In this document: positions 3,135 through 5,472 of the stretch, in pieces | How the letters are laid out: each line of letters begins with the position of its first letter | Numbering within the stretch: the stretch's first letter is position 1 | Assembly: GCA_919902105.1 (NCBI GenBank) | Contig: CAKKQO010000037.1 | Span: 5,598 to 69,597 of the forward strand | Direction: 5' to 3' | DNA: 64,000 nucleotides | Source of the DNA: Omnitrophica bacterium GWA2_41_15 | GTDB taxonomy: Bacteria > Omnitrophota > Gorgyraeia > Ghiorseimicrobiales > Ghiorseimicrobiaceae | The notes under the pieces: model-generated | The model's database searches: none | What the model was told of the DNA's origin: nothing | What the model saw: only the letters and a program-made list of their open reading frames with translations | Position numbers and translations under genes: made by a program

Positions 3135-4064
3135 CTACTTAACAACAACTTCCCATTGTTTTATAAGCTGATTTACCTTAGCCGTGTTCGGATTATCGGC
3201 AAAATACTCATTAACAGCGGCCTTATAAATAAGAGACTGATGACTATTAGTAAGCAGATTGCGTATAATTTCGCTAAAACTAAAAAACGTTCGTTTTTTA
3301 GAATCCGATAGCACCTTTATCCATCCTTTTATACGCTCAAGGAATGACGGCGGCTTTGCAAAAATGCGTGACTGTTCTTGCCAAATCTCTCTATAATAAT
3401 CGCGAAGCTCATTCCATTGCCTGAGCGCCTCATCCAAAGCTAAGATTCTATTCTCAGGTTCTTTAAGAAAAGAGAAAGCCTCGCTAACCTTGTTCTTTAA
3501 AGAGCCGTTACCATTATAAACCCTATTGAATTCTTCTTCTTTTTCAGGATATAGGCTCTTATACCTTCTATTAACTGCTAAGTATGCATTCACTAATTGA
3601 ATATAACCCTTCACGATATCATAATACCTTACAGGCTGGTGGGATGAAGCCTCCCGCCATACCATAAGCTGCTCAACAATACGATTATTCAAGAGCGTCC
3701 ATCCATCCTTCGGTTCAATATCTGCATAAGAATAATCCGGGACCAGCCTTAAAATATCTTTATCTCCCCAGAACACCTTTCCGTATTTTTTTAATTCTAT
3801 GGTAAATATGTATGGTTTTAATCTCTCAAGATGTTTGCTGGTAGTAAACTTTATAGTGATGTTTTTGATAGCTTCGCTATTAGGAACAATTTTAACATTT
3901 TTAACAATTGCAAGGAGCTCTATATCGCTCAGGGTTTCAATCCCCTCTCCCCTTGCAAAACTCCCCACTAAGATCAGAGCCTCAAGATTATCGCCCAGCC
4001 GCCTTGCAATATCTTCCGTTACGCCCTTGATTAACTTCTCTATCTCGTGAGATGTTATAATCAT
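3135..4064 (-). CDS. Nucleotidyltransferase-domain protein (Pol-beta-like NTase fold)
   Basis: LILVGSFARGEGIETLSDIELLAIV matches the GS...[DE]x[DE] minimal nucleotidyltransferase motif. The C-terminal region has no recognised features. Confidence 0.55.
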   Translation of the reverse strand: MIITSHEIEKLIKGVTEDIARRLGDNLEALILVGSFARGEGIETLSDIELLAIVKNVKIVPNSEAIKNITIKFTTSKHLERLKPYIFTIELKKYGKVFWGDKDILRLVPDYSYADIEPKDGWTLLNNRIVEQLMVWREASSHQPVRYYDIVKGYIQLVNAYLAVNRRYKSLYPEKEEEFNRVYNGNGSLKNKVSEAFSFLKEPENRILALDEALRQWNELRDYYREIWQEQSRIFAKPPSFLERIKGWIKVLSDSKKRTFFSFSEIIRNLLTNSHQSLIYKAAVNEYFADNPNTAKVNQLIKQWEVVVK

Positions 4065-4083
4065 TCCTTGATTTGTTGAAATA

Positions 4084-5205
4084 TTACTTATTTACTTGAA
4101 GCCAGATTATATCGTAGCGAACGTTACGGCCCTTGCCGAGTAATTGACGCAAGATTTTTTTATCCAGCATATCCGAAATTTCGCGGAATGCGGTGGCACG
4201 GCTTGTCTTAGTAATACTTACATATTTGCGCGTCGTTAGTCCACCGGTAAAATTACCCGGCCCGGCTTCCAGCATACGGCCAATAACTCTTTTCTGCCGC
4301 TCATTAAGGCCGTCCTGGGCATGCTGATTCCAGAAATCAACCTTTAGAAATACACCCGCAATGATATCGCGCGAATCCTCAATAGATGCCGTCACGCACT
4401 TAATAAACCACAAAAACCATTCCGTCACATCAAGACGGCACCTCTGCACATCCTCAAGGATATTATAGTATTTGTCTCTTGAACGCATAATCTCGGATGA
4501 AACGCTATAAAATCTCACTTTTAATTTTTCATCCTGAGCTAATGCCATATCCGTCAAAGCCCTCGCCAACCGTCCATTCCCATCTTCGTAAGGGTGAATT
4601 GTCAAAAAACGCAAGTGGGCCATGGCCGCGCGCAGGATACCATCTATGCTTCCTTGTGATGACTTCCACCACTTCAGAAAAAGCCGTATCTCCTCATCAA
4701 GACGCTCCTTTGGTAGCGCTTCAAAATGCACCTTTTCCTTGCCGATTGGGCCGGATACTATCTGCATAGGCTCATCGCCCCTTAGCTTTCCAGTCCTTAT
4801 CTTTCTTAATCCGGAATAGCCTGCCGGAAACAGCGCCGCATGCCACCCATTAAGCCGTTCTATCGTCAGGGGCTTATTATGAAAACGGACAGCATCCAGC
4901 AAAACATCCACAAGGCCGTCAATATTCCTGTCATGCGTACCGATACCCTTGGGCAAACCAAGCCTAACGGCAACTGAAGAACGGACTGCGTCCCGATTAA
5001 GCTTCTGTCCCTCGATTTCCGCAGTGCGAATAGTTTCTTCAACCAATACACCAGCCTGAGCTTCAGTTTCAAGCTTAATATCAAGGGACGCAACACGACC
5101 TAACAATTTTCCCTGCAAAACCCTCAACTCACTTAAAGGTTTAAGCAGGACCGCTTCGTCATATTTAAAATCAAACCAATTTTTATGCTCCCAAATGTAT
5201 TTCAT
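4084..5205 (-). CDS. Fic/DOC family protein (AMPylase-type) with an N-terminal DUF4172-like region
   Basis: HPYEDGNGRLARAL matches the canonical Fic motif HPFx[DE]GNGR. GC content looks clearly higher than the flanks by eye (about 45-55% against about 35%). Confidence 0.85.
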   Translation of the reverse strand: MKYIWEHKNWFDFKYDEAVLLKPLSELRVLQGKLLGRVASLDIKLETEAQAGVLVEETIRTAEIEGQKLNRDAVRSSVAVRLGLPKGIGTHDRNIDGLVDVLLDAVRFHNKPLTIERLNGWHAALFPAGYSGLRKIRTGKLRGDEPMQIVSGPIGKEKVHFEALPKERLDEEIRLFLKWWKSSQGSIDGILRAAMAHLRFLTIHPYEDGNGRLARALTDMALAQDEKLKVRFYSVSSEIMRSRDKYYNILEDVQRCRLDVTEWFLWFIKCVTASIEDSRDIIAGVFLKVDFWNQHAQDGLNERQKRVIGRMLEAGPGNFTGGLTTRKYVSITKTSRATAFREISDMLDKKILRQLLGKGRNVRYDIIWLQVNK

Positions 5206-5406
5206 AGGCTTCTCCTGAAGCGATTAGTATGCTTAATCGCTTCAATATTTGATACAATTATACCATTTAATAGCTTCAAATGCAAATTTAAGCAGATAGG
5301 TATTAATTCCTGCAAACACGCCTTTGTCAATAAAATAATGCCGAGTTTATTCATTTTGTTATGCTCAATTATTTCTGAAGGCCCGACAAGCTTGTTTTAA
5401 TGCTAC

Positions 5407-5472
5407 GGCTGGCGTGATGAAGCCGCTTGCCATACGATATAAGAATAATCCGGGACCAGCCTTAAAATATCT
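5407..5472 (-). pseudogene. Remnant fragment of a paralogous nucleotidyltransferase gene, a copy of segments 3635-3664 plus 3726-3760 with a 61-nt internal deletion
   Basis: ataagaataatccgggaccagccttaaaatatctt is identical at 3726-3760 and 5438-5472. The upstream 30 nt are about 85% identical. No intact ORF remains. Confidence 0.55.

Follow-up and report, generated by a model that had tools for sequence, protein, structure and literature searches.

A class II Fic cassette between a nucleotidyltransferase gene and its upstream stub in an Omnitrophota glycan-synthesis operon: a probable insertion with long target duplication

We analysed a 64-kb stretch of DNA from Omnitrophica bacterium GWA2_41_15 (contig CAKKQO010000037.1, positions 5,598 to 69,597), which we call the window, and focused on a Fic gene that separates an intact nucleotidyltransferase (NTase) gene from a short remnant of NTase sequence. 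This arrangement probably arose when a small cassette, consisting of one promoter and the Fic gene, entered just ahead of the NTase gene. The window sequence matches contigs assembled from metagenomes of Hainich aquifer well H51. Coordinates are positions in the window, and all genes at the locus lie on the minus strand. In the order of transcription, they are a PRK-like kinase gene (7339 to 6704), a DUF6788 gene (6509 to 6192), an NTP_transf_8 gene (6211 to 5531), the Fic gene (5205 to 4084) and the NTase gene (4064 to 3135), after which comes a gene for a phosphodiesterase-GT4 glycosyltransferase fusion (3127 to 806). The spacer between the NTP_transf_8 and Fic genes is 325 nucleotides (nt) long, and the distance from the Fic gene to the NTase gene is 19 nt. 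The features around the Fic gene are the following, where L numbers denote the loci and contigs used for comparison.

3135..4064, minus strand: intact NTase gene, 309 amino acids (aa), the putative insertion target, with a pol-beta-type nucleotidyltransferase N-terminal domain and a helical C-terminal part
3634..3666, minus strand: segment A of the intact gene (codons ~133-144), counterpart of A' (5407-5439), 27/33 (82%) identical
3726..3760, minus strand: segment B (codons 102-113 of the intact gene, DILRLVPDYSY), matched by B' (5439-5473) at 35/35 identity
4069..4083, minus strand (read 4083 to 4069): 15-nt cassette tail TATTTCAACAAATCA after the Fic stop codon; the same tail occurs in L009 and L010, after which the sequences diverge
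4084..5205, minus strand: Fic gene, 373 aa, class II, with N-terminal DUF4172, Fic core and C-terminal winged helix-turn-helix (wHTH)
5212-5215, minus strand: ribosome-binding site GGAG, with the Fic ATG at 5203-5205
5216..5244, no strand assigned: perfect palindromic candidate operator TGAAGCGATTA-N7-TAATCGCTTCA (11-N7-11), between the -10 box and GGAG
5257..5285, minus strand: sigma-70-type promoter, with -35 box TTGCAT (5280-5285), 17-nt spacer and extended -10 box TGgTATAAT (5257-5262); 10/12 matches with TG in the promoter scan
5268-5278, minus strand: third half-site, of sequence TGAAGCTATTA, in the promoter spacer
5286..5402, minus strand: spacer of uncertain origin from remnant to promoter; 5286-5313 is common only to the closest cassette, L009, and other loci reach ~5262-5300
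5403..5510, minus strand: remnant of the NTase 5' end, an in-frame 35-codon stub with GTG start (5510) and stop TAG (5403-5405), made of C', B' and A'
5511..5530, minus strand: putative ancestral intergenic spacer ahead of the NTase gene, kept before the remnant; together with C', it resembles what precedes the NTase gene in L008 and L007

Read from 5510 to 5403, the stub encodes VITIKEKIKQETEDILRLVPDYSYIVWQAASSRQP, followed by the stop codon. A sequence-only reading made earlier on this DNA had reported pieces of the NTase gene upstream of Fic, and this was confirmed by the identities of segments A and B given above. Within the 64-kb window, blastn-short gave E=5.6e-14 for the 35-mer, and therefore the match is not due to chance. 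The same reading described an internal deletion of 61 nt. We found that A' and B' abut and share base 5439, so that the missing stretch is 60 nt and in frame. It had also overlooked a third piece, C' (5474-5510), which encodes the N-terminus VITIKEKIKQETEDI of about 19 codons. When C' and the spacer before it were compared with the 5' end of the NTase gene in L008, the local score was 25, against 8.9+/-1.5 for shuffled sequences, and none of 500 shuffles reached it. With the L007 5' end, the observed score was reached by 7 of 500 shuffles, and with the present 5' end of the window's own gene it stayed at shuffle level. At the protein level, the C' peptide is nearer, and for matches such as P0007 far nearer, to N-termini of the family (P0039 MTIEELIRQETENILK, P0007 VKTEELIRQETEDILR) than to the resident IEKLIKGVTEDIAR, and the A' peptide has the family-typical I and Q. 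Approximately 255 nt are missing between C' and the 35-mer, bounded by the direct repeats AAGATATT at a spacing of 255. A tblastn search with the NTase over the whole window revealed no further copy. We thus take the stub, on its sequence, to be the leftover 5' end of the same NTase gene and not of a paralogue. Since the remnant retains the orthologous upstream spacer and N-terminus, it occupies the ancestral position of the single gene.

Two attempts to lengthen these matches were discarded. An extension of the remnant to ~5293 was based on a weak tblastn match (NTase residues 146-162 at 5343-5293) together with family hidden Markov model matches in another frame, and it overlaps the sequence shared with L009. 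A loosely gapped DNA alignment of the whole spacer with the gene was over-fitted, and only its A and B blocks were meaningful.

The NTase gene itself is conserved without Fic. Its protein scores 20.6 bits against Pfam NTP_transf_2, just below the cut-off of 21, and carries the pol-beta signature hG[GS]-x(9-13)-D-x-[DE] as G34-S35...D47-I-E49, with G34, S35, D47 and E49 invariant in 21 homologues. The profile resembles solved structures in the N-terminal domain only, namely the NTase fold of KNTase, LinB and HalB (E~1e-3 for KNTase/LinB). We found 57 homologues with 29-77% identity, and all those bearing an organism name belong to Omnitrophota. In four independent Omnitrophota contigs (L003, L004, L005/L006 and L007), the kinase gene is directly followed by the NTase gene without Fic; the two genes overlap or lie 1-47 nt apart, and these NTases are 57-77% identical to that of the window. 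Where the sequence continues, phosphodiesterase-GT4, Wzy and CBM genes follow. Because the kinase and NTase genes are adjacent in these four orthologous loci, Fic must be an insertion. The DUF6788/NTP_transf_8 pair is likewise missing there, and it follows that the NTase is resident, that Fic and the DUF6788 pair were both inserted, and that the relatives have a single NTase gene, not two. Judging from this synteny, the NTase is a conserved member of an Omnitrophota glycan-synthesis operon (PRK-like kinase, NTase, phosphodiesterase-GT4, Wzy and more) and not a partner of Fic. A role as an MNT/HepT- or AbiEii-type toxin-antitoxin partner was considered and dropped, since the gene is syntenic with kinase and glycosyltransferase genes, Fic-free, in all relatives examined.

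As a separate observation, the present N-terminus of the NTase, MIITSHEIEKLIKGV (4017-4064), has 11 extra nt in the alignment (~4 codons) relative to all orthologues and to the remnant, and its DNA is only ~50% identical. Possibly, this end of the gene was reshaped once the cassette had taken the place of the sequence ahead of it.

To define the inserted unit, we compared relatives of the Fic gene at 80 genomic loci and aligned 36 upstream regions. Among Fic loci (at least 30), nucleotide similarity sets in 57-108 nt before the ATG and ends either at the stop codon or 15 nt past it. In the 36-locus alignment, which covers several phyla, conservation begins exactly at the -35 box, and the sequences upstream of it are unrelated. 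On the other side, the alignments of L009 and L010 with the window end at 4069 and 4071, which puts the right junction at ~4069/4068. In the window, L009 and L010, the ATG of the next gene, a different gene each time, lies 0-5 nt beyond the 15-nt tail; here only AGGA (4065-4068) separates the tail from the NTase ATG (4062-4064). The inserted unit therefore runs from ~4069 to 5290, about 1.2 kb, with one promoter and one gene. Counted as an insert of about 1.3 kb with one gene, thus shorter than 20 kb, it holds no transposase or integrase. With no terminator, and just 19 nt from Fic to the NTase gene, the latter is probably transcribed from the cassette promoter as well.

A search for the nearest relatives of the Fic protein returned proteins of 66-88% identity, with the same promoter, in genomes labelled Omnitrophota, WOR-1, Margulisiibacteriota (a single-cell genome), Auribacterota, Smithellaceae (a complete chromosome), Elusimicrobia and others. 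More than 120 protein clusters were found at 81% identity or above, compared with 29-77% in the adjacent NTase family, and the window protein is identical to an NCBI entry labelled Candidatus Omnitrophota. This distribution over several phyla indicates that the promoter-plus-Fic unit has spread horizontally. Together with the four Fic-free orthologous loci, it bears out the earlier suggestion that the Fic gene was acquired. Among phage records we found no close relative (at most 36% identity over a third of the protein), and in plasmid collections the homologues were at most 45% identical, with no vector found. In an Auribacterota contig (L021), two Fic cassettes stand in tandem (5480-6649 and 7358-8527), each preceded by a 215-nt repeat of 92% identity, which fits amplification via flanking repeats.

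At this locus, the cassette is preceded by a stub of the target's 5' end and followed by the target in intact form. The design is also found at other Fic loci. In 17 of 64 testable ones, the 600 nt before and the 600 nt after the cassette share a direct repeat, as against only 3 of 189 control positions in the same loci (Fisher P=7e-9). These repeats are locus-specific pieces of neighbour genes, 15-191 nt long, with no shared core. In L032, for example, the repeat consists of the final 102 nt of a NifU-like gene; in L012 and L052, it comes from convergent genes and their ends, and in L054 and L082, from the 3' ends of tRNA genes. Because they differ from locus to locus and consist of neighbour-gene pieces, the repeats derive from the target and are not a shared recombination site. 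A protein-level search for neighbour-gene remnants at 68 Fic loci added little to the DNA search. An integron/attC origin or a common att site was rejected, as the repeats are locus-specific and the cassette has its own promoter; no search for IntI was made. In the two distant loci L054 (5784-5823/7128-7167) and L082 (5630-5659/7683-7712), the tRNA 3'-end repeats carry the signature of integrase islands, yet only 1.3-2 kb lies between them.

Five further structures of this design occur in the window, and their features are as follows.

12184 to 10780, minus strand: AbiEii/AbiEi module, between an 86-nt copy (12309 to 12224, 94%) of the 5' end of the next glycosyltransferase gene and that gene (9782-10783)
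13329 to 13244, minus strand: older third copy of the glycosyltransferase 5' end, beyond the MNT/HepT pair (12385-13214); 67% over 86 nt, with 4-5 differences in the first ~50-55 nt
17832 to 16432, minus strand: sulfatase gene, ahead of which the following gene's 5' end is repeated (105-nt copy, 79%; 16315-16419/17855-17959)
22620 to 21179, minus strand: second AbiEi/AbiEii module, after which the preceding gene's 3' end is repeated (101-nt copy, 82%; 22698-22798/21065-21165)
28118 to 27366, minus strand: gene of 250 aa, family unassigned, after which the 3' end of the preceding ManC-like gene is repeated (65-nt copy, 91%; 28710-28774/27243-27307)

The 86-nt glycosyltransferase start is thus present three times, at 10699-10784 in the intact gene, at 12224-12309 and at 13244-13329, which looks as if two insertions had hit one gene start in succession and had each left a stub behind.

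Insertion with long target duplication has been described for small restriction-modification (RM) units without mobility genes, which are flanked by variable direct repeats of 46-423 bp and for which relatives have the empty site (PMC2853133). Nobusato et al. (Gene 259:99, from 2000) are cited for the original report. Furuta et al. (2010, PMC2853133) regarded the mechanism as unsettled and proposed a property of the RM systems such as double-strand breakage. The Fic locus resembles these cases in that the insert lacks mobility genes, the empty site exists (in L003, L004, L005/L006 and L007), and variable direct repeats of more than 30 bp both map to a single-copy target. The repeats here measure 35-105 nt, or ~450 nt at the Fic locus before its deletions. 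The cargo differs, being RM systems in PMC2853133 and Fic, AbiE, MNT/HepT, a sulfatase and an uncharacterised gene in the window. The repeat copies here (67-100% identical) are also more diverged than in the RM cases, with the differences biased to synonymous sites. We consider that the Fic cassette shares this mode of insertion, although it does not belong to the RM set.

The sequence-only reading had also pointed out that the Fic gene is visibly richer in GC than its surroundings. Locally this holds, as the gene has 46.1% GC against 35.5-38.4% in five neighbour genes and 39.1% in the window, and only 1.5% of 1122-nt windows reach its value. As evidence of foreign origin, the difference did not stand. 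Two other genes of the window have 46.0 and 46.4% GC, and the GC3 of Fic is 0.465 against 0.392+/-0.052 (z ~1.4). When the Fic protein was recoded with the codon usage of the window, its GC was 43.5%, leaving a codon-choice excess of only +2.7 points (z=1.39, third of 53 genes); about 4 points of the 7-point excess come from amino-acid composition. Moreover, at 34 of 40 other loci Fic likewise exceeds its flanks in GC (mean difference +5 points), so that a higher GC is a trait of the Fic family. We did not use GC or codon usage as proof of foreign origin, since the excess is mostly amino-acid composition, lies within the window's range and is a family trait. The GC difference is real locally and within the range of the genome, and it is weak evidence.

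As for the protein, Pfam places DUF4172 at residues 3-84 (94 bits) and finds the Fic domain with 46.9 bits (cut-off 24). The catalytic motif H204PYEDGNGRLAR215 corresponds to HxFx(D/E)GNGRxxR with a conservative F to Y change at position 3, and it aligns with HPFDDGNGRIGR of the structure 8CIL. Whether an inhibitory S/TxxxE(G/N) motif is present in cis was a question raised by the sequence-only reading, and the answer is yes. The motif (S/T)xxxE(G/N) lies N-terminal to the Fic core, inside DUF4172, as T61-A-E-I-E65-G66, and aligns with TSAIEG 62-67 of CbFic2. Since it is part of the same polypeptide, the protein is assigned to class II of Fic proteins on its sequence. A separate antitoxin was sought and rejected, as the cassette holds no such open reading frame (ORF), the 35-codon ORF upstream is the NTase fragment, and there is no room downstream. 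The class I modules FicT/FicA and VbhT/VbhA likewise have a Fic-fold AMP-transferase restrained by an (S/T)xxxE(G/N) helix, but there the helix sits on a separate antitoxin protein, while the window Fic carries it in the same polypeptide and has no adjacent small gene.

Among solved structures, the nearest relative is CbFic2 from Coxiella burnetii (CBU_0822, PDB 8CIL), which phmmer aligns over residues 3-370 versus 6-373 (E=2.5e-117). The two proteins agree in architecture, length, DUF4172 inhibitory helix (TSAIEG versus TAEIEG), Fic motif and C-terminal HTH (CbFic2 residues 304-362), which is well conserved (TTRKYVSITKTSRATAFREISD versus TTRKYTQLTKTSRTTAYRELHD). CbFic2 is a class II enzyme in which DNA binding through the HTH causes dimerisation and a switch from AMPylation to deAMPylation; the study treated it as an effector that is directed at the host and acts on histone H3, used random DNA, and left the specific site open (PMC10628234). 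The window protein differs in that its host is a free-living groundwater bacterium, its own promoter bears a conserved palindrome, and Y replaces F (HPYEDGNGR).

The PADLOC SoFic model matches residues 20-363 with E=2e-39. Like SoFic (Shewanella 3EQX; E. coli Sofic), the protein appears to be a class II Fic with a C-terminal DNA-binding domain, although it scores only ~40 bits against the SoFic chains themselves. We regard it, on these sequence scores, as a relative of the single-gene SoFic defence and not as a SoFic equivalog. E. coli Sofic comes with the antitoxin AS1 of 47 aa, encoded by a small downstream ORF (PMC12249575). This ORF has no counterpart here, where 19 nt lead to the NTase gene. 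In the window, Fic sits among other toxin-antitoxin or abortive-infection modules, namely AbiE twice and MNT/HepT.

Another conserved element of the cassette is its palindrome. The promoter region contains three GAAGCGATTA half-sites, that is, the palindrome pair and the half-site in the promoter spacer. In the window, such half-sites cluster only at the Fic promoter, and single matches elsewhere are at chance level. The exact palindrome occurs in 26 other genomic Fic loci (L009-L088), once per locus (twice in one), always 11-50 nt before the Fic ATG and nowhere else in these loci. Scans of viral and metagenome sequences returned at least 126 exact palindromes; among the matches listed, 87 of 114 assessable ones have Fic within 80 nt, and among the palindromes listed (126), 12 are too near the end of their contig for a verdict, and 27 have no Fic gene after them.

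A precedent is CccR of Yersinia pseudotuberculosis, a DUF4172-Fic-wHTH protein. The inverted repeats AGATAATCAT-N26-ATGATAATCT, located at the -35/-10 boxes of its own promoter, are bound by a CccR dimer, which represses transcription (PMC9755527). CccR and the window Fic are alike in being class II DUF4172-Fic-wHTH proteins with an inverted-repeat operator within the gene's own promoter, which here is a palindrome plus a third half-site. They differ in half-site sequence and spacing, with an N7 palindrome after the -10 box and one half-site in the spacer here. CccR is also an effector of the type VI secretion system (T6SS) that targets FtsZ (PMC9755527), whereas a secretion context was not evident in the neighbouring genes examined here. 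A Sulfitobacter plasmid (NZ_CP068999.1, L094 1400-1503) carries a 45%-identical Fic beside repC and a RES/Xre toxin-antitoxin pair. In this homologue, a different palindrome, GCGGAGATT-N9-AATCTCCGC, covers the -10 box, with a further half-site upstream. The operator design appears conserved with a changed half-site sequence. On the basis of the conserved palindrome at Fic promoters, the CccR precedent and the plasmid homologue's own palindrome, auto-repression of Fic is a well-founded candidate function. By analogy with CccR and CbFic2, a Fic dimer would bind the palindrome through the C-terminal wHTH and repress its own promoter, the enzyme would be held inactive by its own N-terminal helix (E65), and it would act as a DNA-regulated AMPylase/deAMPylase, plausibly in a single-gene abortive-infection defence.

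Copies of the operator also occur apart from Fic genes. Two viral contigs from IMG/VR (L091 1629-1657 and L093 3581-3609), which hold the same sequence in opposite orientations, carry a copy of the Fic promoter/operator, ~46 nt long (TAATTGTATCAGATTTTGAAGCGATTAAGATACCTAATCGCTTCAG), with the same spacer as L038 and no Fic gene next to it. It is conceivable that these copies serve as decoys for the Fic protein. In L201 (564-640), the promoter and the first five codons (MKYIW) are present before the similarity breaks off, and in L116 (1117-1145), the -35 box is fused straight onto the palindrome. Exact Fic operators without Fic were also seen in L119, L175, L090/L121 and others, several of them inside unrelated ORFs.

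Taking the locus as a whole, we consider it probable that a ~1.2-kb Fic cassette, likely auto-repressed, was inserted 4-5 nt before the NTase start and left a broken 5' stub, with the two NTase copies descending from two alleles. The remnant would comprise the ancestral spacer and codons 1-~19, 102-112 and 134-144, having since lost ~255 nt and 60 nt between short direct repeats to become the present 35-codon stub. The stub and the intact gene would come from two diverged functional alleles of one gene. DNA of a diverged relative, with the cassette beside its own NTase gene, would have entered by homologous recombination on one side and an out-of-register or illegitimate joint on the other, so that part of one NTase allele was left beside the other. 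The 35-nt identical block could mark the exchange point or a later gene conversion, and such a structure, once formed, could also pass on by ordinary double crossover. Homology-facilitated illegitimate recombination, which de Vries and Wackernagel reportedly described in 2002 for naturally transformable bacteria, is said to integrate foreign DNA by a homologous anchor and an illegitimate joint. An out-of-register joint of this type would leave a partial donor/recipient duplicate next to a conserved gene, as here; the reported products are said to carry deletions usually, not duplications. To our knowledge, nothing is known about competence in Omnitrophota. We put this process forward as a proposed mechanism at the Fic locus.

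Support for two alleles comes from the differences between repeat copies. Over the six structures of the window, differences at codon positions 1/2/3 number 8/12/42 (42/62 third), a bias with P=3e-8 versus 1/3, the even spread predicted for a copy made in place that then decays, and P=1e-4 versus a 0.44 model in which the remnant is neutral and only the intact copy is selected. The remnants of the sister structures keep their frames without stops or frameshifts, and where the copies of the second AbiE case differ, 13 of the 16 codons affected still specify the same amino acid. Third-position bias and clean frames together argue that the copies diverged while both were coding, that is, as two alleles.

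Several points weigh against this reading. For the Fic structure alone, the differences are 0/3/3 in A' and none in B', which is too few, and the two-allele origin would here be borrowed from the neighbouring structures, with remnant peptides that fit. A 35/35 block between pieces that are at most 82% identical has a chance of 0.8^35 = 4e-4, and it needs an exchange point or a conversion, neither of which is demonstrable. The donor allele was not found among the sequences compared. The 5' and 3' parts of the intact NTase gene are equally near to L007 and L008 (87% versus 82-83%; L003 was also compared), with no discontinuity, and the chimera test against L007, L008 and L003 gave no signal, so that donor and recipient parts are not assignable. 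The stretch 5314-5402 is not accounted for, and the literature itself has not settled how insertions with long target duplication come about. On the side of function, the NCBIfam SoFic equivalog model gives 55.8 bits, far under its cut-off of 550, and the repressor, enzyme and anti-phage functions suggested above rest on analogy.

The same arrangement could also have been produced in place. A staggered break or template switch at insertion would duplicate ~450 nt of the NTase 5' end, the upstream copy would decay neutrally through substitutions and two deletions, and a later conversion would account for the 35-nt identity. The geometry suits such a duplication, with the right junction 4 nt before the ATG and the left junction inside the gene; so do the A' differences, which lack third-position bias, the position of both deletions between short direct repeats, as from replication slippage, and an intact NTase without chimera signal. 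Neutral decay is a misfit, however, with the five sister structures, which are strongly third-position biased and have clean frames. It also leaves the family consensus motifs in the remnant N-terminus, absent from the resident gene, unaccounted for, and 18-45% divergence in A' and C' beside 0% in B' needs an extra event. We regard duplication, decay and conversion as a possible history of this locus, though an unlikely one. The sequence-only reading suggested a second, paralogous NTase gene, inside which recombination brought in Fic and destroyed it. A paralogue would be diverged from the intact gene as the remnant is (82% in A'), but the four independent orthologous loci have one NTase directly after the kinase, the tblastn search over the window found no other copy, and a remnant with the orthologous upstream spacer holds the ancestral place of the single gene. 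This proposal is thus very improbable.

Perfect direct repeats flanking the insert also recall site-specific integration, with the 35-nt repeat as an attL/attR core, a recombinase acting in trans and the cassette as a small non-autonomous integrative element; in L054 and L082, the flanking repeats are even tRNA 3' ends, the classic integrase target. Against this, the repeats vary in sequence and length (15-191 nt) by locus without a common core, no recombinase gene lies within or beside the cassette, the target homology runs past the 35-mer on both sides (A' and C'), and the cassette ends are a -35 box and a stop codon, which are not att-like. We give it little chance of being right. Finally, the window comes from a short-read metagenome assembly, in which coincidence or an assembly artefact might be suspected. 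The 35-mer (E=5.6e-14) speaks against coincidence. As to an artefact, the same 14-kb sequence was assembled identically from a second sample, a third sample showed 3 mismatches in 12.8 kb, and equivalent structures exist in a complete chromosome (L035) and a single-cell genome (L024), which makes this explanation negligible.

Both the gene family and the mode of insertion have been described before, and taken alone, the case is a well-documented specimen of an ordinary event. The specimen is unusually clear, because both ends of the unit, the -35 box on one side and a point 15 nt beyond the stop codon on the other, are placed to within a few bases and the empty site is known. Five sister insertions with non-RM cargo argue against the published dependence on DNA breaks made by restriction enzymes, and insertion with long target duplication is clearly not limited to RM cargo. 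The synonymous-site bias between repeat copies leads to a testable mechanism, recombination between alleles, and the conserved palindrome offers a concrete candidate for the specific DNA that regulates CbFic2-type enzymes, which the structural study left open (PMC10628234). More tentatively, and with appreciable doubt, the findings may be read jointly to mean that insertion with long target duplication is a general way into tight operons that needs no recombinase and is open to small defence or toxin cassettes with a promoter of their own and, occasionally, to ordinary genes, the flanks being two parental alleles. If this were true, the duplicated flanks would not be made at insertion but would be parental alleles left by a homologous anchor and an out-of-register joint, and the nested remnants at 10699-10784, 12224-12309 and 13244-13329 would record successive acquisitions. 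The GAAGCGATTA palindrome would then be the long-sought specific DNA ligand of CbFic2-type Fic proteins, for which the phage-contig copies (L091/L093) could be decoys. In the literature on Omnitrophota gene transfer, we found nothing on Fic or flanking duplications.

Upstream of the remnant, the locus holds the following genes and control region.

6704..7339, minus strand: PRK/uridine-kinase-family gene (Pfam PRK E=3.3e-39), which abuts the NTase gene directly in the relatives L003-L007
5531..6509, minus strand: module of DUF6788 (6192-6509, 105 aa; from a precomputed hit) and NTP_transf_8 nucleotidyltransferase (5531-6211, 226 aa; Pfam PF12281 E=2.2e-23)
6523..6639, minus strand: promoter/operator region of this module, with repeated TTGTATGGTAAC half-sites, inverted and direct repeats, and promoter TTGACT-17-TATAGT (6586..6558, promoter scan)

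Like Fic, the DUF6788/NTP_transf_8 pair is missing from the orthologous loci L003-L007, and it appears to be a second insertion, placed between the kinase gene and the NTase remnant. PADLOC and NCBIfam gave no match for the pair, which is probably an uncharacterised toxin-antitoxin-like module. A 17-mer, ATAAGTAATATTTCAAC, that bridges the Fic ORF and the cassette tail (4076-4092) is found again at 6609-6625 (E=0.003), inside the operator spacer of the DUF6788 module; this recurrence is probably due to chance in AT-rich DNA.

Elsewhere in the window, two further observations were made. Contig L001, from another Hainich sample, is 99.98% identical to the window over 12.8 kb, but at its positions 2315-2414, it has 100 nt where the window has 356 nt (12792-13147), so that most of the HepT gene is absent in that strain or assembly. 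A 38-nt intergenic palindromic hairpin, AACCATGTAGACCTACGCGGTCTACATGGTT, resembling a repetitive extragenic palindromic (REP) element or a terminator, occurs in six copies (35846, 40820, 41522, 44514, 48063 and 50171), and a related hairpin borders the Fic cassette in L012.

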